Positions 1 through 21,232 of a DNA stretch of 64,000 nt are shown in pieces. This DNA is from Schmidtea polychroa (taxonomy: Eukaryota). The notes under the pieces are model-generated. The model saw only the letters and a list, made by a program, of their open reading frames with translations. It was not told where the DNA came from and made no database searches. The translations under genes and the position numbers were made by a program. Location: NCBI GenBank assembly GCA_044892525.1, contig CM097886.1, positions 179,230,312-179,294,311 on the forward strand. The letters run 5' to 3'. How positions within the stretch are numbered: position 1 is the stretch's first letter; each line of letters opens with the position of its first letter.

Positions 1-646
1 CTTTAATGACTCTCCGTGAAGGTACTTGTGCAGGGGAAAAATCTTTTCAACCTCATCACCTTCCGCTTCGTCAACACACGCAGTAAAAGCTGCTTTCCAT
101 GGTTCGTACTCTTTCATCTTGCCTTCAAAGACAGGTATTTTAATTTTCTGTAGACTTTCCATTTCTCTTTTATGCACGGAATTATTCTTCTTGATTGTAT
201 CATCATTCACATTTTCCTTCTCTTCCATAAAAGATTGATTTGCTTTTCTTTCCATCAATGCCCCAATTATTTGATGTTTTTCCTCGATCTCTTGCAGGTC
301 TTTATTTAAGATTGCAGTGATGTCCAATCTTTGCAATTTTTTACTGATCGTTCTCATATCCCCTAATTCTTCATCTAGACTCTCCTTTTGATCTTCATAT
401 TCCGCCAATCATTCGCTAACATCTTTCCCATTTATATCATTGAGAATCTTGTTTCTCAATCTCGTTAATTTTCCTTTTTTCATTCTCTTTTTCCACAGTC
501 CTTCTTCTAAAATCTCTTCGTCATTGCCCCCGCACAGCCTGAGTGACAAATGAAGTGTCGAACCTACTTGTATGCTATAATCGTTCAATATTCTTTTATT
601 TTCTAACTGCTTTCCTGCGTAGACTAGCATTTGATAATTTACCGGA
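1..646 (-). pseudogene. Second, degenerate copy of the ubiquitin-Gag region of the Bel/Pao element (continues off the left edge of the window)
   Basis: Reverse complement aligns to 6498-7142 with a few percent substitutions. It reads partial Ub (...[12 protein letters not shown]) in frame into Gag ([12 protein letters not shown]...), then has a TGG>TGA nonsense change at 409-411; the frame stays open downstream to the window edge. Homology stops abruptly at 646, mid-ubiquitin. Confidence 0.93.
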
Positions 647-2067
647 TTTGTAATTTGACTGTAATTTTATTGTAATTTGACCATTTTACGCACACAACCC
701 AAACAAAAATGCACACAGACGCGACAAACTAAAGAAGTTACAAGCAAGATAAATAATATAGTTTTGTAAAAATAATAAAAAATAATAAAAAAATAAATAT
801 AAAAGTCAATAAATGAGCTTGGAATGTTTTATCACCCACTCTAATTACCATATAATTATGGGGGCATGCACCAAATATATACACATTTTATTGAAAACCA
901 TTAAGATATACGTGAAAAGTACATTTCAGTAATTTATNNNNNNNNNNNNNNNNNNNNNNNNNNNNNNNNNNNNNNNNNNNNNNNNNNNNNNNNNNNNNNN
1001 NNNNNNNNNNNNNNNNNNNNNNNNNNNNNNNNNNNNNNNNNNNNNNNNNNNNNNNNNNNNNNNNNNNNNNNNNNNNNNNNNNNNNNNNNNNNNNNNNNNN
1101 NNNNNNNNNNNNNNNNNNNNNNNNNNNNNNNNNNNNNNNNNNNNNNNNNNNNNNNNNNNNNNNNNNNNNNNNNNNNNNNNNNNNNNNNNNNNNNNNNNNN
1201 NNNNNNNNNNNNNNNNNNNNNNNNNNNNNNNNNNNNNNNNNNNNNNNNNNNNNNNNNNNNNNNNNNNNNNNNNNNNTGAAAAAGGCAGTGCAGAAAATTC
1301 GTGAGTATCAAAAAACAACGATATATTTGTGATTTATAATAGGCAAAAAACAAAAAAGAACAAATGACAGAAATAAAAACTTTTATTATAGATTCTTTTC
1401 TTTATTACTCGAAACATTTTATCCCGATCCCATGATGATGCCTTCATTTAAACAAATTATTTTATATTTTGATAATTATTTATATTTAAAATATCTGTAA
1501 TTGTTTATCATTAGAATAAAAAAACGCATTATTTCGTGTTTACGAATGTTATTAATCAAAACAAATCCATTAATATNNNNNNNNNNNNNNNNNNNNNNNN
1601 NNNNNNNNNNNNNNNNNNNNNNNNNNNNNNNNNNNNNNNNNNNNNNNNNNNNNNNNNNNNNNNNNNNNNNNNNNNNNNNNNNNNNNNNNNNNNNNNNNNN
1701 NNNNNNNNNNNNNNNNNNNNNNNNNNNNNNNNNNNNNNNCAGATATAACTATATTTTTAAACAATTAAATGATAATTTAGGCTTTTGCTGCAAATAAAAT
1801 ATTAAAAAAAATTTCGACTATAAGAAATTGGAAATGGCTATTTTTCATTTAATATATTATTCGCAGAAAAGCCTTAAATTATCATTTATTTGTTTTAAAA
1901 AATAATAATAATATTATTATTATTTTTTTATTAAATATATTTGAAATTTTAATATTAATTTATAATTTAATTAAAATATTAAAATTCGAATTTTGTTTAA
2001 ACTTGTAATTATTAAAATGCATATATATGCAGTAAATTTTCTCAAGGATATTATAATAAAAATCACA

Positions 2068-4874
2068 ATGGTAAAGTTTTGTAAAATATTTGAGATTGAG
2101 AATAAATATTTTCTATTGTAGTCATTCGAGTACAGAGGAATTCTATGCGTTTTCGGTGCTTTCCTAATACATTTTTCACTTGGAACGATTTATACATTTG
2201 GTGAGTTGTTTTCATTTTGAGATATTAAAGCTATTTTCATGTGAAACTTTAGGAAATATGAGTCCATATATTGCATCATATTTGAAATTTATTACCAAAT
2301 CATCAAATGTTGCCAATTCGGACATGGTGTGGATCTTTGCTTGTGGTTTAGCTTTACAAGGATTCACAATGACTGTAGGAGGAATCCTCAACAAAAAGAT
2401 TGGACCAAGACTGACAACATTAATTGGCTGTTGGTTGATGAGGTAATATTAACATTGTTTTGATTGAGTTTGCTATATTTTCAATTTAGTTTTGCTGTCA
2501 TGTTGACATTCTTTACAATCAAGGCCAATTTATATGTCACCATTCTCACATACGGAGCTATATTCGGGGTAGGCATTGGCATCGCATATTCAGTTGCCAT
2601 TGCATCAGCAATCAAAGTAATTAATATTAATAATAATTATCCCATTCATTCTTATATTGAATCTTGTTGCGTCTCTAGTGGTATCCGAATAAACGCGGTT
2701 TGGTAATTGGTATAGTTGTTGCAGGATTCGGACTCGGTTCATTGGTTTTCAATCAGATACAAACTGCCTTCATCAATCCGGATAATTTGAAACCAGAAAT
2801 AAAGATTGGAAATGATAAGTAAGAATATGGAGAATATTTTCCCAATTATATTTTCTAATATTATATACAAAATCTATAAAATTGTGCATATTTAGATATT
2901 TTGGCAATGTTGACATGTTAAACCGAGTTCCATTTTGTTTCTTGTTGACAGGCGGCTTATACGCTTTTATCCAACTGATTGGGTGCCTGTTCCTGTTCAC
3001 CCCGGCCGTCAGAGAAATTAGTGTAAAATTTATTTTTAATAAAATATTTATACTGATTTAAGTTTTTATAATTCCACAGGAAATTGATAAGCAACCAAAT
3101 TCGCATGAGGAAATTGAGTCAAANNNNNNNNNNNNNNNNNNNNNNNNNNNNNNNNNNNNNNNNNNNNNNNNNNNNNNNNNNNNNNNNNNNNNNNNNNNNN
3201 NNNNNNNNNNNNNNNNNNNNNNNNNNNNNNNNNNNNNNNNNNNNNNNNNNNNNNNNNNNNNNNNNNNNNNNNNNNNNNNNNNNNNNNNNNNNNNNNNNNN
3301 NNNNNNNNNNNNNNNNNNNNNNNNNNNNNNNNNNNNNNNNNNNNNNNNNNNNNNNNNNNNNNNNNNNNNNNNNNNNNNNNNNNNNATATTGCAATTTTAG
3401 AGAAAATCAACCGATTCCTTCCGAAAGTGAAGTTAAACAATTTTCACCTATCCAAGCTATCAAATCTAGAGATTTCTGGGTATTATGGTGCACCTTCATG
3501 CTTTTAGGGACAATTAATGTCTTTGCTACTTCTTTATACAAGGTATTATTANNNNNNNNNNNNNNNNNNNNNNNNNNNNNNNNNNNNNNNNNNNNNNNNN
3601 NNNNNNNNNNNNNNNNNNNNNNNNNNNNNNNNNNNNNNNNNNNNNNNNNNNNNNNNNNNNNNNNNNNNNNNNNNNNNNNNNNNNNNNNNNNNNNNNNNNN
3701 NNNNNNNNNNNNNNNNNNNNNNNNNNNNNNNNNNNNNNNNNNNNNNNNNNNNNNNNNNNNNNNNNNNNNNNNNNNNNNNNNNNNNNNAAAATCCATAAAA
3801 TGTGCTAATTAAAACAACAATACACAAACAAAATATCAAATAGTATTAATGCATATTTTGCAATGCTTTGTAAATATTTCAATTGTAATGGAATTTTCTT
3901 GCTAATTAATTACTAAAAAAGTTTGAATTATTTTTATATTTTTATTATTAAAATTAATTTTATGTTAATTAAATTGTAAATTTTCTAATTTAGACATTTG
4001 GCCAATTGTTCATTAGCAGCGATTACTTTTTGGCGATTGTTGGGTCGGTATCCTCCATTTTCAATGCGGGCGGGCGGTTATTCTGGGGCCAAATCATGGA
4101 CAGGTTCTCTTACAAGGTAATAAGCTTACTGATATTCTCATACATTCCCTAGTTATATTTTTATTAAATATCATAACTTTTGCTTATAATAAATGTTGTA
4201 ATAATTATTTATGAAGCGCATTTGAGCCCTTGATGAGCATTTATAATATTATCATTAACATTTTCAACCAATTAGATTGCAATGCGATGCGTTTGTGTGA
4301 TTACTGCAATGTTAATGGGAACATTTTATTGTTGCAAATTGGTACCGAACTTGATTGGAGCAGAAGTGATGATCATGATTTGGGTCTGCGGTTTATTGGC
4401 AAATATTGGTGGGATTTTTGCATTGATGCCAGCCGCCACGGCTAAATTGTTCGGAACCAAACACGTTGCTACAGTATTCGGAATGCTATTCACGGCAAAT
4501 GTGAGAACTTTGACAAGAATTGAATATAATTTCTAATATTATCCAGGCGATTGCAAGCTTCATTGGAGCTATCACAACGAGCATTCTGCTGTCGAAAATC
4601 GGGTATTTGGGAATATTTGAAATAGGAGCAGGAATAACCGTAATTGGTAAGGAATATTTTGTTTTAATGAAATGATATTATTTCATTANNNNNNNNNNNN
4701 NNNNNNNNNNNNNNNNNNNNNNNNNNNNNNNNNNNNNNNNNNNNNNNNNNNNNNNNNNNNNNNNNNNNNNNNNNNNNNNNNNNNNNNNNNNNNNNNNNNN
4801 NNNNNNNNNNNNNNNNNNNNNNNNNTATTCCAGGTTTCATTCTGACATTTGTCCATCAAAAGGAAAACCTCTAA
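2068..4874 (+). CDS. MFS transporter, oxalate:formate antiporter (OxlT)/monocarboxylate-carrier-like, 12 exons
   Basis: Hand-spliced GT-AG exons: 2068-2070, 2122-2200, 2253-2442, 2490-2616, 2679-2818, 2896-3022, 3080-(masked), 3401-3542, 3994-4116, 4276-4500, 4547-4646, 4834-4874. Product includes FLIHFSLGTIYTFGNMSPY, GGILNKKIGPRLTT, WYPNKRGLVIGIVVAGFGLGS, GRLFWGQIMDRFSYK and GGIFALMPAATAKLFG, the MFS loop motifs and hydrophobic helices typical of this family. The end of exon 7 is hidden by N. Confidence 0.9.
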
Positions 4875-5088: not shown

Positions 5089-5093
5089 ACAGA
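5089..5093 (+). repeat. 5-bp target site duplication ACAGA (second copy at 12840-12844)
   Basis: ACAGA lies immediately before the TG of the 5' LTR and immediately after the CA of the 3' LTR. Confidence 0.95.
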
Positions 5094-6036
5094 TGTTTAA
5101 TTCGATGTTCGGGTCTGTGTGCGCCGTTTACTATCCTTGTGTTGTTGGCTGTGGGCGCACACAGACGCATATAGTTGTGGGTGTGGTTTGGCTTTTTTCT
5201 ATCGCGTCTGTGTGCGCGGTCTGGTTAGACCGAATATTCATGGTGTGCGCACACAGACGCGAGCAATGGAAGCTCGGTGGTTGTCATAGGTTTAATGGTG
5301 AATTTTTTATTTGATATTGTAATTTTAATTCGATTATTGTTTGGTAGAATAAGATTTGGGTTTTTTTTTTATCGACGAAATTTTGTGGAAAGTTTGAATT
5401 TGAATTTGGAAGAATTGGTTTTGGTTAAATGATGGATTATGAAGTAGATGATGAATATGAAGAAAACAATTGTGAATTATCAGATGGTGATAAAATGAAT
5501 GCATTTGTTGGTCCGAATAGCTGTTTAATTTACGAATCATCAAAGGAATTAACGTCAAAGAAGTTTTGTTCCCATGAGATTCAATTAATTCAAAATGAGA
5601 CGATAAATAATGTTGCCTCGAAGAGCGATCCGAAAAGCTCAATTATTGGATTGCTTTTAATTGAAAATCAGCATTTTCAAAATGTTGAAGATGCTTTTCG
5701 ATTACTTATGAATATAGAATGCCCCAGGCGTATCAAGCAATTGCATCATGTACTTACTCAACAATTAGAAGTTCAACGATTCGAGTCAAATGTAGGAGTT
5801 CTACTCATAGAAGATGATTGTGTGTATTTCAATGGAAGAAAAATTGGTCAAAGAATGCCATTCAATATAAAAAGTTTCTCAAGTGAAAACTATCTGTCAT
5901 TCGTGTTAGAGGATAATAATGTAGAAATTGCCGACATCTATTTCTCCATCAGAAACGATGAGACAATAACTGACTATATAATATGTGCTTCTATTGCGGA
6001 AAATAAAATTATCGATCGTTGGTTTCGATTCATTCA
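5094..6036 (+). repeat. 5' LTR (943 bp)
   Basis: Starts TGTTTAATTCG and ends TTCATTCA. By eye it differs from the 3' LTR only by a T10 vs T9 run and GGTTAAATG vs GGTTTCAATG. Confidence 0.96.
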
Positions 6037-6328
6037 TGGTAGCAGAGCGTGGTTCCGGCTAGCCAGCCGGAACAAGGTAATTAATATGTATTGTAAGATG
6101 TCTTTTTTGGTTTTATATATATTATGTAAATATTATGTGTTTAATAATATTTTTGTAATTAATAATATTTTGGTAATTAATATGTACTATAAAAAATCTT
6201 GTTTGTCGTCACGCATATTATGTATATATTATAATACTTTTGTAAAATTAAACATCCTCCCTTCCCTACCGAGCGTGGGAAAGTGCTGCTATGGGCCCCA
6301 GCACTCTTTTAAAGGGGGAACAGGGTAA
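5429..6328 (+). CDS. LTR-encoded ORF of unknown function (202 codons inside the LTR, reading on through PBS and leader; 299 aa total)
   Basis: Uninterrupted frame from ATG 5429 in AT-rich DNA, with an acidic N-terminus and globular-looking composition. The part after about 6077 is low-complexity and probably non-coding or intronic. No family recognised. Confidence 0.6.
6037..6054 (+). promoter_or_regulatory. Primer-binding site for initiator tRNA-Met
   Basis: TGGTAGCAGAGCGTGGTT abuts the LTR-terminal CA and is complementary to the 3' end of a eukaryotic tRNA-iMet (...AACCACGCUCUGCUACCA). Confidence 0.9.
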
Positions 6329-6366
6329 AGAACAGAGCTGTGTCAAGGGTGAGGGCGAGCGGGGTA

Positions 6367-6678
6367 ATGGGTTTTGAGTTGCGATGGGAAAGTCAAATAT
6401 TTGTCAAAACTCTTACTGGTAAGACAATTACTCTGGACGTTAAATGGAAGGACACAATTGAAAAGATAAAAGGAAAAATCCAGGACAAAGAAGGAATTCC
6501 GGAAAATTATCAAATGTTAGTATACGCAGGAAAGCAGTTAGAAAATAAAAGAAGATTGAATGATTATAGGATACAAGTAGGGTCGACACTTCATTTGTCA
6601 CTCAGGCTGTGCGGGGGCAATGACGAAGAGATTTTAGAAGAAGGACTGTGGAAAAAGAGAATGAAAAAGGAAAATTAA
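6367..6678 (+). CDS. Diverged ubiquitin domain (6394-6618) forming the N-terminus of Gag; separated from gag-pol in this copy by a 1-nt shift
   Basis: [16 protein letters not shown]...KIQDKEGIP...AGKQLE...[12 protein letters not shown], 53/76 identical to canonical ubiquitin by manual alignment. First in-frame ATG is 6367. The A5 run after ATG 6661 is A6 in the other copy. Confidence 0.92.
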
Positions 6679-9600
6679 CGAGATTAAGAAACAAGATTCT
6701 CAATGATATAAATGGGAAGGATGTTAGCGAATGGTTGGCTGAATATGAAGATCAAAAGGAGAGTCTAGATGAAGAATTAGGGGATCTGAGAACAATCAGT
6801 AAAAAATTGCAAAGATTGGACATCACTGCAATCTTAGATAAAGACCTGCAAGAGATCGAGGAAAAACATCAAATAATTGGGGCATTGATGGAAAGAAAAG
6901 CCAATCAATCTTTTATGGAAGAGAAGGAAAATGTGAATGATGATACCATCAAGAAGAGTAACTCCGTGCATAAAAGAAAACTGGAAAGTCTACAGAAAAT
7001 TACAATACCGGTCTTTGAAGGCATGATGAAAGAGTACGAACCATGGAAAGCAGCTTTTACGGCGTGTGTTGACGAAGCGGAAGGTGATGAGGTTGAAAAG
7101 ATGTTTCACCTGCACCAGTACCTTCACGGAGAGCCATTAAAGTTAATTGAAAATCTAGGATATTCGGCAGAGGCTTATCAAATGGCAAAAGAGAAGTTGG
7201 ATAGGCGATATGGTGGGGATGAAAGGATATATTTATCAATGTTAGAGGAGATGGAACAGTTCAGGCCAATTCGAGAAGGAGATTTGAAGGATCTAGACTC
7301 ATTTGTTGGATTATTAGAAACGGTCACCTTGCGATTTAAATCCACTGGGAAAGAATCCGAGTTAAAGACTGGATATCTTTTTCAAAAGTGTTTGGGCAAG
7401 TTAACGACGAATCTTGTGTATAATTGGAAAAAAGACAATATAGAAAAGGAATTGCGGGAGACGATAGAGGATTTGAGAAGATGGATACAACAAGAAGCGG
7501 AGATCCTAAGGTCCACTAACGAGGTCGTGTATGGGACTAAACCAAGCACCAGGGCTTATGATGGGTCAAGAGTAGAAGGGGGGGGGGTGTCTAGGGGAAG
7601 AGAAAGATTCAATCCTGGAGGTCGGACGCATTTTACGGGGCAACCAGATGGCAGAGTTAAAAGTGGAACAGTTATACAGGTGAATAACTCTAACGGCTAT
7701 AGGTCAGAGTGTGTACACTGTGGTGGTCAACATTACCTAGACCAATGTGACAAGTTCAAGCAACTCACAATTCCTAAAAGGAAGAAAGTCATCGAAGAAA
7801 AGAAACTGTGCAGGAATTGCTTCAAAAGAAATCACATGGCCAAGGAATGTCGTAAAGAATCTTTCTGCAAGGTTACCGGATGTAAGCAAAGGCACAACGA
7901 ATTATTACATGAAAGACAAATTAGTGAGGAGAGTGAAAAAGGTAACAACACGATGCTGACCCAGAAAGGGATGAACGAGAAAAACCTAAGACCTTACCTT
8001 AGTTTAAGAACAATTCCAATCTACCTGGAAAATGGGAACAAGAAAATAAAAGTCAATGCACTGTTAGATGATGCAAGCTCAGTAAGCTACATCAATCTAA
8101 GAATTTTAAAGGAGCTTGGGTTAAAAGGGGTGGAAAAGAGGACACCGATAGGGGTTATCGGAGGTAATGTCCAACAAATGATGGCTACTCCAGTGACCAT
8201 GAAGTTAATTAGTAATGACGGCCGATTGACGAAAAACTTCAACGCACTGGCCGTAACAAATATCACGGGAGAAATGAAGGTAGTAAATTGGGCCAGAGAA
8301 AAACATAAGTGGACTCACCTGAAGGGCATCCATTTTCCGATGCTAGACGAGAGACAGGCAGTTGAAGTGTTAATTGGCGCGGATTATTTAACGCTTCAAC
8401 GAGCACTCAAAGAAATCGATGGTAAGTTGGATGAACCGATTGCCCGTTTAACGCCACTTGGCTGGACATGTGTGGGAAGAACCTCGGTGGGAAGAACTTG
8501 GAACCATCAAAGCAATTTCATACGAACGTTCTTCGGTAATGGCGAGGATTTGCAACGACAGATGGAGCGATTTTGGGAAATTGATGATAGCGGCTTAAAG
8601 GAAAATATATTTGCAGCGAAAGACCAAGCGATTTATGAGAAAACCAAATCTGAAATGAAGAAAGTAGACGGACATTTCGAGGTAAAAGTGCCATGGAAAG
8701 AGTCACCAACAGCTTTGCCCAATAGTGAAAAAATGGCAGAAAGTCGACTGCGAAGTTTGGACAAGAGGCTTGAAAAGGAAGACTTACGAACTGAGTATCA
8801 GGATATTTTGAATGGTTACCTGAAAAAAGATTATATAAGTATTGTAAAAGAGAAAATGATGCCTGGAGATTCGGAATGGATATTACCACACTTTCCCGTG
8901 GTTAGAAGAGATAAGGACACCACGAAAGTGCGTATTGTGTTTGATGCGGCAGCCAGGTGTAATGGGGTGGGACTTAATGATATGGTGGAAGTTGGCCCAA
9001 AATTACAAAATGAAGTTTTTGATATTTTAATTCGTTTTCGTCGATTTTCCGTAGCTGTTGTTTGTGATATAGCAGAAATGTATCTGCAAATAAGAATGGC
9101 TCTTGAAGACAGGAAATATCATCGGTTTTTATGGTCAACTGGGGGGAAAATTATTAAGTATGAGTTTAATCGGTTAGTGTTTGGTCTTAATGCATCTCCA
9201 TTCCTTGCCCAGCTAGTCGCGCAAGAGAATGCAAAGAAATTTGAAAAGGACTACCCAAAAGTGACAGAATCTATTTGCAAGTCTACGTATATGGACGACA
9301 CCATGGACTCTGTTGATTCTGAAGAAGAAGGAATGAGGCTGAAAGAGGGGCTAGAAACAGTTTGGGGCAATGCCGGAATGCGGCCTAGAAAATGGCTGTC
9401 CAACTCGGAAAGAATTATGGCGACAATCCCAATTGAAGAACGAGCTAAAACACTGAATATTGAAAAGGAAACGACAATGGCCGTCAAGACCCTAGGTTTG
9501 AAATGGTACTCGGAAGACGATGAATTTAGTTTTCAAGTAGATCTGCCGAATGAAGAATGTTTATCGAAAAGAAAGGTATTGAGCATGGTGGCAAGAATCT

Positions 9601-11903
9601 TTGATCCATTGGGACTGTTAGGCCCATTCATAATCATAGGGAAAAAGATTATTCAGAAGTTGTGGTTGTCAGGGCTTGATTGGGACGAAAAGCTACCTCC
9701 AAAGTTGAATAAAGAAATACACAAGTGGGTAGAGGACACAAATAATCTCGGAGATCTGCGAATTGCGAGATGTTTAAGGACTCAAATGAAAAATGAATGG
9801 CAATTACATGTCTTCTCCGATGCGTCAAGCACCGCATATGGGTCAGCTATATATCTACGGGAAGAAACTATGGTGGGAAATAAAAGTGTGTTAATTGCGT
9901 CAAGGGCAAAGGTAGCTCCAGTGCAAATTATAAGTATACCAAGGTTGGAATTAATGGCCGCGTGTACTGGAGTTAAATTAGCAAGACGGGTTTCAGAAGT
10001 GCTCGGGAAACCGATGAGCGAGATATGGTTCTGGTCCGATAGTAAAGACGTAATACATTGGGTTCGAAATTATTCGAGACTATTCAAGCCATTCGTAGCT
10101 AATCGAATTGGGTTCATTCAAGAAATGACCAAACCTGGGCAATGGCATTATGTTCCAACAAGTGAAAATCCATCGGATTTGATCACAAGAGGATTATCGG
10201 CATCGGATTTGATAAACAGCACCATGTGGTGGGAGGGACCGAAATTTCTACTAGAACCAATGGGAAATTGGCCAGCGACGGAGTTAAACCAATCCAGTGT
10301 AACAAAGGAGTTGCGAAAGGAAATAACAATGATGGCGTGTGTAGAGGGGCAAAGACGAATAGGGAACACGGACTGTTTCAAAGTAGAAACCTTTTCCTCA
10401 TGGCAGAGATTGATCAGGATGCGGGCCTGGGTGGAGCGATTTATTTTGAACACGAGAACGACACAGTCCCAAAGAACCACAGGGCAACTGACAACTGAGG
10501 AGCTTAAAAGAATGGAACTCAATGTAATTAAAGGAGAGCAGGCGAAGTTTTTCTCTGAGGACCTGGCACGACTTATCAAGAATGAAAGGGTAGATATCAG
10601 AAGCCGTTTGTTAAAGTTGACACCAGTTTTAGATGAGATGACTGTGTTACGAAGTAATAGCAGCATAATTCATGCAAAGAATTTACCATGGGAGACAAAA
10701 TATCCAATAATTCTATCGGACAAGAGTTGGGTCACCAGACTAATCATCAAAGATTGCCATGAAAGTTTGAGCCATTATGCAGGAACTCAACATGTCTTAA
10801 GTGTGTTGAACGAAAAATATTGGATTTTGAAGGCCAAAGTAATGATCAAACAATGTGAGACAGATTGCGGAATGTGTAGAAAAAGAAACGCTAAAGGAAT
10901 GAGTCAAATAATGGCACCGTTACCGGCGTTCAGGGTTTCAGAACCTTTTAGAGCCTTTGTTCACTCGGCAGTAGATTTTGCAGGACCGTTTGAAACTAAA
11001 GTAGGCAGAGGAAAGGTGAGAAATAAAAGGTACATTTGCCTATTCGTATGTTTAAAGTCACGGGCGGTGCATATTGAAATGGCATATGGGTTGGACACAG
11101 ACTCATTCATTCGAGCGTTTATGAGGTTTGCAGCGACGCGGGGGATGCCAAAATTGATGATCTCAGACAATGGCACAAATTTCATAGGCGCCACTTCTAC
11201 AGTAAAGGATTTTGTAATCGACAACTATAAAACTCAAAGAGAGTTGTCGAAGCATCAATGTAGTTGGATCTTCAATCCTCCATCAGCACCGCATTTTGGG
11301 GGAGTTTTTGAGTCCATGATCAAATCGGCAAAGCGAGCTATGAATGCCATACTGACAAGTGCAGATGTGACCGACGAAGAATTGGGAAATGTGTTGACAA
11401 GGGCTGAAATGTTGATAAATTCTCGGCCCTTAGTGGTTCAGGCTGTAGACAGTAAGGAAGACGCTGTGCTAACTCCAAATCATTTATTAATTGCCGGTTG
11501 GAAAGGAGAAGCTGTGGAAAATATAGAAGGGAAGAAAATGTCATGTACGGTCTTTCGGTGGAGACGAATTCAGGAGTTAACCGAGCACTTCTGGCGGCGA
11601 TGGATGAAAGAATTGGTCCCGTGCTGGCGGCAAAGGGCGAAATGGAATAAGATAGAAGATGATGTCAAGACAGGGTCAACAGTGTGGGTTTTAGACAAAA
11701 GGAATGAGTATGGGAAGTGGCCAATGGGGAGAGTAATCGAAGTGATACCGGGAGAAGACGGAAAGCTACGCGTGATGAGGATAAAATGTGAAGGAAAGGA
11801 GGTATTAAGATGCATATCTAAATTATGCTTGATCACAAAAGAAGGAGAAGTTAATGGGGATGTGAGATTGACACCAAAGTGTCAAGGGGGGGAGGATGTT
11901 TAA
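6648..11903 (+). CDS. gag-pol: Bel/Pao Gag-Pol polyprotein (1751 aa as annotated)
   Basis: DUF1759-type Gag (IPVFEG...W..F), zinc knuckles [13 protein letters not shown] / [14 protein letters not shown] / [15 protein letters not shown], aspartic protease ALLDDAS, RT ([24 protein letters not shown]...YMDD), RNase H ([28 protein letters not shown]), integrase HHCC plus VDFAGP/SDNG/GGVFE core and C-terminal FWRRW region. Stop codon lies 7 nt inside the 3' LTR. Confidence 0.97.
11884..11896 (+). promoter_or_regulatory. Polypurine tract
   Basis: AAGGGGGGGAGGA directly precedes the TG of the 3' LTR. Confidence 0.9.
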
Positions 11904-12839
11904 TTCGATGTTCGGGTCTGTGTGCGCCGTTTACTATCCTTGTGTTGTTGGCTGTGGGCGCACACAGACGCATATAGTTGTGGGTGTGGTTTGGCTTTTT
12001 TCTATCGCGTCTGTGTGCGCGGTCTGGTTAGACCGAATATTCATGGTGTGCGCACACAGACGCGAGCAATGGAAGCTCGGTGGTTGTCATAGGTTTAATG
12101 GTGAATTTTTTATTTGATATTGTAATTTTAATTCGATTATTGTTTGGTAGAATAAGATTTGGGTTTTTTTTTATCGACGAAATTTTGTGGAAAGTTTGAA
12201 TTTGAATTTGGAAGAATTGGTTTTGGTTTCAATGATGGATTATGAAGTAGATGATGAATATGAAGAAAACAATTGTGAATTATCAGATGGTGATAAAATG
12301 AATGCATTTGTTGGTCCGAATAGCTGTTTAATTTACGAATCATCAAAGGAATTAACGTCAAAGAAGTTTTGTTCCCATGAGATTCAATTAATTCAAAATG
12401 AGACGATAAATAATGTTGCCTCGAAGAGCGATCCGAAAAGCTCAATTATTGGATTGCTTTTAATTGAAAATCAGCATTTTCAAAATGTTGAAGATGCTTT
12501 TCGATTACTTATGAATATAGAATGCCCCAGGCGTATCAAGCAATTGCATCATGTACTTACTCAACAATTAGAAGTTCAACGATTCGAGTCAAATGTAGGA
12601 GTTCTACTCATAGAAGATGATTGTGTGTATTTCAATGGAAGAAAAATTGGTCAAAGAATGCCATTCAATATAAAAAGTTTCTCAAGTGAAAACTATCTGT
12701 CATTCGTGTTAGAGGATAATAATGTAGAAATTGCCGACATCTATTTCTCCATCAGAAACGATGAGACAATAACTGACTATATAATATGTGCTTCTATTGC
12801 GGAAAATAAAATTATCGATCGTTGGTTTCGATTCATTCA
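11897..12839 (+). repeat. 3' LTR (943 bp)
   Basis: Near-identical direct repeat of 5094-6036. Confidence 0.96.
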
Positions 12840-12882
12840 ACAGATCTTAACACAAATGACTCCAATAATTCAATTACGATAA
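12232..12882 (+). CDS. 3'-LTR copy of the LTR-encoded ORF, terminating in host flank
   Basis: Same MMDYEV...DRWFRFI sequence. There is no stop inside the LTR, so it reads through the TSD to TAA at 12880-12882. Confidence 0.45.
   Translation: MMDYEVDDEYEENNCELSDGDKMNAFVGPNSCLIYESSKELTSKKFCSHEIQLIQNETINNVASKSDPKSSIIGLLLIENQHFQNVEDAFRLLMNIECPRRIKQLHHVLTQQLEVQRFESNVGVLLIEDDCVYFNGRKIGQRMPFNIKSFSSENYLSFVLEDNNVEIADIYFSIRNDETITDYIICASIAENKIIDRWFRFIQQILTQMTPIIQLR
12805..12810 (+). terminator. Candidate LTR polyadenylation signal AATAAA (also 6002-6007)
   Basis: Canonical hexamer about 30 nt before the LTR end; AATAAA is common in AT-rich DNA. Confidence 0.4.
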
Positions 12883-14620: not shown

Positions 14621-16490
14621 GCGATTTTTTTATAAACTTTTATAAACTTTCACTATTGAAAATAAATTATTAAAGTTATTTTTTTGGTATATTGAATGTG
14701 ACTTATGATAAAGTCTTTTGTACGCATATTACTTCTTGAAGGTGCAAAGGTAGTGAGTAAATTTTACACGCTGGCATATATCTACGATTTTGAAATGACA
14801 AGTAAAATGTTGCTCTAAGGATTTTAAAGAAGAAAATATTTAATCATATGAAAACCAGAATAAATTATAATTATAATTAAAGCTGACAAGCAATGAATAG
14901 CATGAGAATTAATGGTTGCAAAGGTCTGTAACACAGAAACACTGCCAAACGAGACTATAGAAGAAAAGACGGATTTACAATGAATTACAAAAATAAAGAA
15001 AATAAAAATATTGGGTAAGACATTATGTAAAAAATACACATGGGCAATCTAGAAGAATTGGGTTACACTGAATAAATCGTGCGAAGAAAATTTAAAAATT
15101 GAAAAACGGACATAGCGACCCAATTTTAGGCATTCTGTTCGACCGTATTGGTTGTAACATATTATTTGGGGCGTATTTGTAATTAATTATAATCATATAT
15201 TGTAAAATTGTACTAGCGTTAATAAACTAATATATTGTTGTGAGTAATAGTTGCAGGTGTTTATCAAAGTAAAAATAATGCGCTAACCTAAGCTATTCGT
15301 TGTAAAGCAATAAAAACATGAATTTAGATTATGTAATATCAAACATGAAACGCTTATCCTCATCTATCCTCATACCACTGGAGACTAACACTAGAATTTC
15401 TGGAAAATATGACAAACTATGCAAACAATGTCAGTAACTAATTCACCTTTTGTGAGGTTCCTAGCCGGTCAAATTTTTATTTAATAAAAGTCAGCGGAAT
15501 TTATTTAATAACGACTTTTCTTTCTGTTTATGGATGTTTTTATTTCAAAATATGATATTTAATCAGGATTATTAAATAGACAAAATCGTAAAAAGGAGTA
15601 TTGTGTTAAATCTAATATTAGATTATTTTTAATTGAATTATATTTTCGAGCTCATATAATCATAAATGAGTTATTGAAATATTTAGGGGGGGGGGGGGGG
15701 TACAAATTTGTATTTTACCTGGGACCCCAAAATAACCTAGGGCTCTACTTAAATTGTGTTTTTCGGTTCGACCGAAATATCATTTTATAATTGTGTTTTC
15801 TGTTAAAAGTAATGTGCTAGTCACAATCGATCCAACTCCAAGATGTCCTTTTAATATCAAAATCACAAGACACTCAACAATATCATTATTTGAATCAGTA
15901 CATCTATTATTGGAATTTTGATTGGTCGGTAATAAATATCCAATTGATATCCGTTTCGTAAAGGTCAATCGGTTGGCAGAGTTATGAATTTAATTTTATA
16001 ATAATGTTAGCATATAATAATGTTAACATATAATCACAATTTTCATTATTATCTTTATTAATCCGTTCTTTAGTTTGTTTAATTTGACCAAATTCTGAAC
16101 CAATTATGTCTGTAAACTCTGCAAAACTCTGCAAAATAATAAAAGTTACAAAGTTTTATCTGCTATAAAGAATAAATTTTTAAACATTCTCCTGTTGAGA
16201 AGAGTTGCTAAGTTGTATATAAGTTTGAGATAATAAATTCGTGTGGAGTCCTTATTATTATAACCGTGACTACAAAGAGTAGGATACTTGAAATTTTCTA
16301 CCGAAAATATTATAAAACCCCGAAAAATGTGATGAATGTGTTTTTTTATAATTCATAATTTTGTTTAAAACGGTCATTTATTATTATTTCTCAACTTTAA
16401 AAAAACTCTCATTAATTAAATTAATTAAAATTAATTTGATGAATAATTTATTTTTCCAAATCTTCAGTTATATTTCAAAATCAGATTTCA

Positions 16491-21076: not shown

Positions 21077-21161
21077 ATGAAAGTGACAAAATGTTTCCCT
21101 TTTAGTGCTTTCATTATAGGAATTCTTACTCAAGTTATTGTTGGTTAGTAATATTTAGTAA

Positions 21162-21232
<71 letters not shown>

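Follow-up and report, generated by a model that had tools for sequence, protein, structure and literature searches.

The open reading frame (ORF) of about 200 codons that runs through the long terminal repeat (LTR) of a Schmidtea polychroa BEL/Pao retrotransposon is, in our preferred reading, a mosaic of host mRNA pieces that continues in frame into ubiquitin, Gag and Pol in unbroken copies of the element, and is likely a replaceable passenger that would be clipped off by host deubiquitinases (rough probability 0.7). The ORF lies in a stretch of 64,000 nucleotides of contig CM097886.1 (assembly GCA_044892525.1), referred to here as the window, and its relatives were sought across the genome, which was searched as 781 Mb in four large contigs.

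The window element is a young BEL/Pao copy (Table 1), with 3 differences between its paired LTRs (99.7% identity). Its Gag/Pol domains are of the Pao type with the integrase last, and it has TG...CA LTRs, a target duplication, a primer site and a polypurine tract. DUF1759 (131–269), RVT_1 (810–913), Peptidase_A17 (981–1140) and DUF5641 (1645–1736) scored above the Pfam cut-off, and an integrase zinc domain (1372–1423) was matched below it. The second of the nested inverted repeats at the LTR start is common to most subfamilies; these repeats are likely a promoter or RNA structure element, and an Rfam search returned nothing credible.

Table 1. Features of the BEL/Pao element and its LTR mosaic, in window coordinates.
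Feature	Position	Strand	Basis or remark
Full-length BEL/Pao LTR element	5094-12839	+	two LTRs, 5-bp target duplication, primer site, polypurine tract
Target-site duplication ACAGA, 5' side	5089..5093	+	sequence
5' LTR, 943 nt, TG...CA	5094..6036	+	LTR pair alignment
Non-coding LTR start, two nested inverted repeats	5094..5270	+	fold z = -5.05, 0/200 shuffles
Host RPB6 piece	5413..5497	+	94% to L084:4810-4895
Host gene X piece, codons about 19-186, native frame	5481..5986	+	94-100% per segment
Proteasome alpha-6-like short remnant	5977..6004	+	alignments of 23-31 nt; weak
AATAAA, likely poly(A) signal	6002..6007	+	35 nt upstream of primer site
Primer-binding site, complementary to tRNA-Met(CAT) 3' end	6037..6054	+	in-frame read-through H-G-S-R-A-W
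Donor-like site (AAG/GT) behind primer site	6074..6082	+	AAGGT in 90/90 loci; analogy PMC3694450
AT-rich leader, stop-free in polyprotein frame family-wide	6078..6393	+	window copy frameshifted near 6315
Ubiquitin-like domain ending LRLCGG, directly before Gag; predicted cleavage site	6394..6618	+	Pfam ubiquitin E 4.5e-24
BEL/Pao Gag-protease-RT-RNase H-integrase	6619..11903	+	Pfam; ORF 6624-11903; window copy frameshifted near 6665
Polypurine tract	11884..11896	+	sequence
3' LTR	11897..12839	+	second mosaic ORF copy from 12232, ends 12882 in host DNA
Target-site duplication ACAGA, 3' side	12840..12844	+	sequence

The stop-free frame proved to be as given in the preliminary description: it comprises 203 codons (5429–6037, MMDYEV...RFIH), one among 2000 simulations of the LTR by dinucleotides reached at least 202 stop-free codons in any of the six frames (mean longest, 87), and the 5' and 3' copies of the ORF end at 6328 and 12882. 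The apparent end at 6328 arises because the window copy is broken near 6315 and 6665; this stop is peculiar to the window copy and is not the state of the family. A genome search recovered 26 LTRs of this type at 98–100% identity, and the frame of the cassette (the variable coding stretch of the LTR) is intact in 22 of them, with one carrying a stop, two frameshifted and one interrupted. Among the other 5' LTR junctions with the same cassette (n = 11), nine are open across its entire length; eight of these run into ubiquitin, seven into Gag and three to the integrase. The longest sister frame covers 2162 codons from the cassette ATG to the integrase. The ORF is the N-terminal part of a ubiquitin-Gag-Pol frame, not a separate gene.

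What had been called an ORF of unknown family resolves into three pieces: 23 codons of RPB6, about 165 codons of a host gene designated gene X, and a short proteasome-like remnant that, with the family's LTR end, makes up the last 17 codons. The earlier suggestion of a captured host gene fragment is borne out by RPB6 and gene X donors matching at 94–100%. The RPB6 piece consists of 16 nt of 5' UTR, the start codon and 23 codons, and its source is the first exon of host RPB6, an RNA polymerase subunit; the remainder of that gene (locus L084) matches Pfam RNA_pol_Rpb6 (E = 3.7e − 11). A search for an intron-containing donor in the host genome, as had been proposed, led to locus L081 (G000:C1 near 240.78 Mb), where the gene X piece matches four segments at 94–100% identity, with GT-AG stretches of 51, 1498 and 1656 nt between them. 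All three stretches are precisely absent from the LTR, where the joints lie at 5545/5546 (the 51-nt piece), 5578/5579 (the 1498-nt intron) and 5842/5843 (the 1656-nt intron).

Contigs of runs X1–X3, presumed to be RNA, span both large-intron positions with the letters of the donor and extend on either side into donor sequence. Because the 51-nt GT-AG piece is present in these contigs, it is not a constitutive intron; it is also kept in the LTR variant L078, and was therefore lost through a minor splice form or through splicing of the element's own RNA. The contigs listed from the runs presumed to be RNA included donor-gene contigs over the cassette stretch and none of the cassette itself, a result with no bearing on expression; likewise, the matches listed contained no GT-AG joint from 6077, which has no bearing on splicing. 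The RPB6 and gene X pieces overlap by a short similarity around 5481–5497, and both this joint and that between gene X and the tail overlap in short similarities, as judged from inspected alignments and not against a null comparison.

Later exons of gene X match an independent protein, P0003, at 88–100% over five exons, and the full upstream exon is matched solely by the L081 locus, around which we looked for Gag, Pol or primer-site sequence and found none. Family searches with gene X in Pfam, PDB and Atlas gave no match; a short Cys/LPFGW motif hints that it may be NEURL4-like, a type characterised by Neuralized repeats followed by an ADP-ribosyltransferase-like fold at the C-terminus. A separate cargo is formed by the upstream part of gene X (150 scored matches genome-wide), with at least 149 further matches, most of which end near the start of the piece in the window cassette, and this suggests recombination among cassettes besides fresh capture. 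At the loose end before window position 5428, a contig of run X1 has internal RPB6 sequence running directly into the 5' UTR stretch of that gene; it possibly reflects a chimeric or circular RNA, or else an error of assembly.

Searches with the 202-aa ORF taken as a single protein gave little. A BLUF domain was matched weakly in Pfam (E = 0.008, below the cut-off) and was rejected, as was P0002 (E = 6e − 14, the single match in a search of representatives), a tandem-repeat translation scoring through 8 weak repeats. No homologues appeared among proteins of near or greater length, the PDB sequence search gave no match, and Atlas matches of 0.90–0.91 were to unnamed clusters, below the recognition threshold. 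The fold predicted from the single sequence reached a pLDDT of 34, which is weak evidence, and the Foldseek search made with it, with no match at E 0.001, was uninformative.

To place the cassette within its family, we used the exact 25-nt primer-site pattern, which occurs 229 times in the genome, and examined 90 of the first 100 listed loci, leaving out eight copies of two known types, one more of the second type and one other. These copies are related, so that the loci are not independent events. They fall into 38 cassette clusters, some being truncated forms of others, and 23 of 31 cassette translations had Pfam matches, to seven unrelated host families (proteasome, EAP30/Vps36, dual-specificity phosphatase, TCP-1, Ras, Adaptin_N and cofilin). 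A sister subfamily with a 97.6% identical body carries a different cassette, likewise in frame to the integrase. The proteasome cassette was identified as alpha-6 in the PDB (E = 7e − 44); by peptide tags this piece is present in 46 of the 90 loci, and first-look candidates number about 1500 genome-wide.

The frame contrast is strong on both sides of the LTR end and spans two very divergent Gag lineages. From −300 to −45 relative to the primer site, the polyprotein frame holds 123 stops in 7650 codons, against 707/7650 and 472/7560 in the other frames, and 64 of the 90 loci are stop-free over the 255 nt upstream of the LTR end in this frame, against 0 and 2 in the others. This stretch is the fair control: alternative counts of 62, 0 and 1 of 85 overstate the contrast because stops are fixed at the end of the LTR, the counts for the fair stretch with one locus per cluster (28, 0 and 1 of 30) are biased by the choice of long ORFs, and the tag counts (110 in frame, 15 out of frame, 0 antisense) are partly circular, the tags having come from in-frame translations. 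In the leader, which diverges widely between subfamilies, there are 19 stops in 2700 codons in frame, against 343 and 170 in the other frames.

These counts bear on the suggestion that the ORF is an accessory factor comparable to MMTV sag or lentiviral nef, which are conserved stand-alone U3 genes coding within or overlapping the LTR. An independent LTR gene of this kind, or one lying in U3 outside the Gag message, would agree with the end of the window frame at 6328, before ubiquitin, and with an uncertain transcription start: in 45 of 46 copies, the cassette ATG is preceded by 1–9 others on the stretch that follows the conserved inverted repeat, and simple scanning from the LTR start therefore does not fit. 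The transcription start may be closer to the cassette, or the ATG-bearing stretch may be removed; in-frame Met codons are also present in the leader, for example at 6367. Against such a gene, the stop is copy-specific, the LTR itself encodes none in the cassette frame, and the frame is kept across the primer site and the divergent AT-rich leader in 78 of 90 loci, compared with 6 and 8 for the other frames. The ORF thus has no stop of its own, and family-wide conservation under purifying selection was not found, the window cassette occupying 1 of the 90 loci (five further listed copies of it were kept out of the 90). We regard an independent gene as largely refuted and very improbable. The likeness to sag and nef extends to coding sequence in or overlapping the LTR, whereas here that sequence is a variable N-terminal extension of Gag-Pol, and sister subfamilies carry unrelated pieces at the corresponding position.

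Two signals flank the primer site. AATAAA lies 33–59 nt before it in 79 of 90 loci, against 0–12 of 90 in ten control windows, and AAG/GT lies behind it in all 90. Together with the frame constraint, they lead us to infer that the cassette sits in a long R region. The arrangement resembles the occlusion of the HIV-1 5' LTR poly(A) signal by the major splice donor, in that the signal is in the LTR and the donor only behind the 5' LTR, but the distance between the two is 195 in HIV-1, according to the portion of PMC3694450 consulted, and about 75 nt here, where the role is predicted from layout. At 6290–6304 the window has further complementarity to the primer tRNA-Met, this time to its D/anticodon arm, with one extra base and inside a local hairpin; a similar stretch was seen in leaders of the same Gag lineage, and it is possibly an extended primer contact. 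The tRNA-Met(CAT) pattern has 1247 matches genome-wide, and a large tandem array of these genes, at 454-nt spacing, lies at G000:C1:79.33–79.39 Mb (L197).

A ubiquitin domain ending in Gly-Gly stands at the predicted Gag N-terminus. In the two Gag lineages, 23 of 25 and 16 of 16 copies retain the Gly-Gly of the Gag-proximal ubiquitin, and the residues before it differ, the natural ends being LRLCGG and LGLAGG. The canonical ubiquitin end is LRLRGG, and LRLCGG in its place may weaken cleavage. In the second Gag lineage, the first ubiquitin is without a Met of its own. The Gly-Gly pattern is as expected of a processing signal, by analogy with the ubiquitin insertions of cytopathogenic pestiviruses described in the part of PMC8310069 consulted, where captured cellular ubiquitin serves as such a signal and host hydrolases set the downstream N-terminus even when the ubiquitin is truncated and extra host sequence lies upstream. 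Those insertions are single events in an RNA virus; in the present family, known from sequence alone, ubiquitin is fixed in two Gag lineages.

Codon models place Gag (omega 0.31, p = 8e − 8) and the single ubiquitin (omega 0.31, p = 2e − 6) under purifying selection; the first of the doubled ubiquitins has an omega of 1.5, and counting gives 0.92 for the AT-rich leaders. All the selection tests given here include post-insertion mutations, ignore recombination and use copies that are not independent. The EAP30 (omega 1.6, p = 0.34) and phosphatase (omega 1.3, p = 0.68) cargos do not depart from neutrality. Compared with the donors, the window cargo has 9 replacement changes on about 454 sites and 5 silent ones on about 104 (p = 0.10, one overlap codon dropped), a test of low power with 14 changes; its own lineage has 6 and 2. 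Among the 26 copies of the window cassette there are 11 replacement changes, 4 silent changes and 1 stop, and in the other gene X cargo 24, 9 and 1. Within that low power, the pattern in the window cargo agrees with selection that keeps the frame open and not with selection on the protein, and its changes since capture give the proposed accessory role no backing. The proteasome alpha-6 cargo departs from this, with an omega of 0.34, or 0.37–0.53 with other models or minus three divergent copies (p = 1e − 5 under GY+F3X4). It could be compared only among copies because the host gene was not found among 20 loci of 80 matches. This cargo is partly constrained, beyond what a pure passenger predicts, and does not fall under the open-frame pattern; some cargos may have a function.

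The same capture and fusion could have released cargo that is a selected accessory factor, for instance dominant-negative fragments of proteasome alpha-6, ESCRT-II, chaperonin, coat adaptin or Ras-family proteins (protein turnover and trafficking) that protect Gag or particles. The spread and constraint of the alpha-6 piece (46 of 90 loci, about 1500 first-look candidates, omega 0.34–0.53) and the work of several donors in protein turnover or trafficking speak for it. Against this, the cargos are truncated and freely swapped on a nearly identical body, two of them are neutral and that of the window is indistinguishable from neutral, the single-sequence model of the window cargo has no confident fold (itself weak evidence), and housekeeping mRNAs are anticipated as by-catch of co-packaging, abundant ones being expected there. 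We consider a selected accessory factor unlikely.

For the passenger reading, the following mechanism may be proposed. Transcription would begin upstream of the cassette and stop just behind AATAAA, and the cassette would therefore lie in an unusually long R, with a U5 no longer than a few tens of bases. The cassette region would be the first to be copied by reverse transcriptase primed at the tRNA-Met site; during the first strand transfer, the enzyme could use short similarities to change over to a co-packaged host mRNA or the RNA of a sister element and then back, after which normal replication would put the captured product into both LTRs. Because the cassette ATG starts the polyprotein, only sense, in-frame captures would leave descendants. 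Cleavage after Gly-Gly would yield an identical Gag N-terminus whatever precedes it, and arbitrary cargo would be tolerated for that reason. U1 bound at the donor-like site would keep the poly(A) signal of the 5' LTR silent.

Alternatively, the host-like and rapidly changing LTR sequence may act as RNA or DNA and not as protein, evading small-RNA silencing or supplying an mRNA-like 5' end, with the open frame merely the price of a position upstream of Gag. This is compatible with the many cassette clusters on a conserved body and likewise predicts neutral amino-acid change, but error-prone strand transfer alone would also give such turnover, and we judge it decidedly improbable. A broader proposal, which we advance tentatively and hold to be doubtful, is that the LTR is a standing exon-shuffling slot: the long R would capture and recombine pieces of host mRNA, translated before the ubiquitin release site, and some cargos (such as proteasome alpha-6) or host-like sequence as such would be selected as counter-defence. 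If true, the slot would let any cargo be tried without harm to Gag.

The closest precedent is LTR-mediated retroposition (Tan et al. 2016, PMC5131818). As in the cases described in the consulted part of that study, the copies here are intronless and derive from partial host mRNAs with short similarities at the switch points, more than one gene can contribute to a chimera (there in one case by a Pao element), and captures are mostly sense and in frame with the parent. In those cases, however, the retrocopy replaces internal ORFs and the element turns non-autonomous, whereas here capture lies within both LTRs, no internal ORF is replaced, Gag-Pol is complete in sister copies, and the slot has been refilled repeatedly. 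The mechanism is akin to that class but outside its layout, and the family belongs to BEL/Pao and is not of the sag/nef type. Bs1 of maize and the additional ORFs of plant LTR elements also contain transduced pieces of several host genes; these occupy the internal region, up- or downstream of gag-pol, and the passages of PMC7264820 consulted describe none in an LTR or coupled to ubiquitin.

With the BEL/Pao elements surveyed in PMC3118150, as far as the sections consulted go, the family shares the Gag-protease-RT-RNase H-integrase order, Pao-type Pfam domains, TG...CA LTRs, a 5-bp duplication, a tRNA primer site and a polypurine tract. It differs in that the polyprotein frame starts in the LTR and crosses the primer site, and in having variable host cargo and ubiquitin before Gag; the word "ubiquitin" is absent from the main text of that survey. 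Planarian Burro giant transposons carry extra domains in a different system (PMC6431247, in part), and the fixation of extra domains is called rare in the consulted part of PMC9289625. A full-text search, with a scope that excludes Repbase reports, subscription journals and supplements, found no literature on host-gene mosaics inside LTRs fused to ubiquitin-Gag.

Gene capture normally cripples LTR elements, but this apparently autonomous family retains its whole Gag-Pol under an unusual layout in which translation would cross the primer site. Chimeric host-gene pieces have been amplified to hundreds or more places, each with its own promoter and with no stop in the LTR, and provide many dated natural captures for the study of template switching and in-frame selection. 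They also pose an annotation risk: the LTRs will pass for expansions of host gene families, and will interfere with read mapping to the donor genes and with the design of RNAi against them.

Several further observations concern other copies. In L070–L077 (for example G000:C1:155216254), a sister cassette contains a 78-nt tandem repeat in 1–6 copies; the repeat number differs between the 5' and 3' LTR of one element, and the frame is always kept. L078 (G000:C3 near 29.06 Mb) is an inverted pair in which two cassettes of different kinds face each other and have the conserved inverted repeat in common, and at L079 (G000:C4 near 44.74 Mb) an element end is joined to an inverted partial copy. L182, L193 and L194 contain divergent, partly broken proteasome-alpha-like ORFs without the LTR motif, which seem to be fused to actin-like sequence. 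To judge by the flanks of L007, L009, L021, L023 and L029, several copies may have inserted into sequences resembling Polinton-type DNA polymerase and ATPase genes or hAT-type transposases.

Elsewhere in the window, positions 1–649 (minus strand), like L080 and L086, hold the family's ubiquitin-Gag region a second time, in a decayed and inverted form that is about 95% identical and has an early Gag stop. Exons of a probable major-facilitator transporter gene (2168–4536; weak MFS_1 match, E = 0.002) lie just upstream of the element. At 14722–62900 a unit of about 16.2 kb is repeated in tandem, with three copies, two being 99.96% identical over 16 kb and the third about 94–99%; they represent either a recent segmental duplication or an assembly duplication. 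The unit includes a weak Quiver/Ly-6 match at 21152–21427 (E = 4e − 4, below the cut-off).
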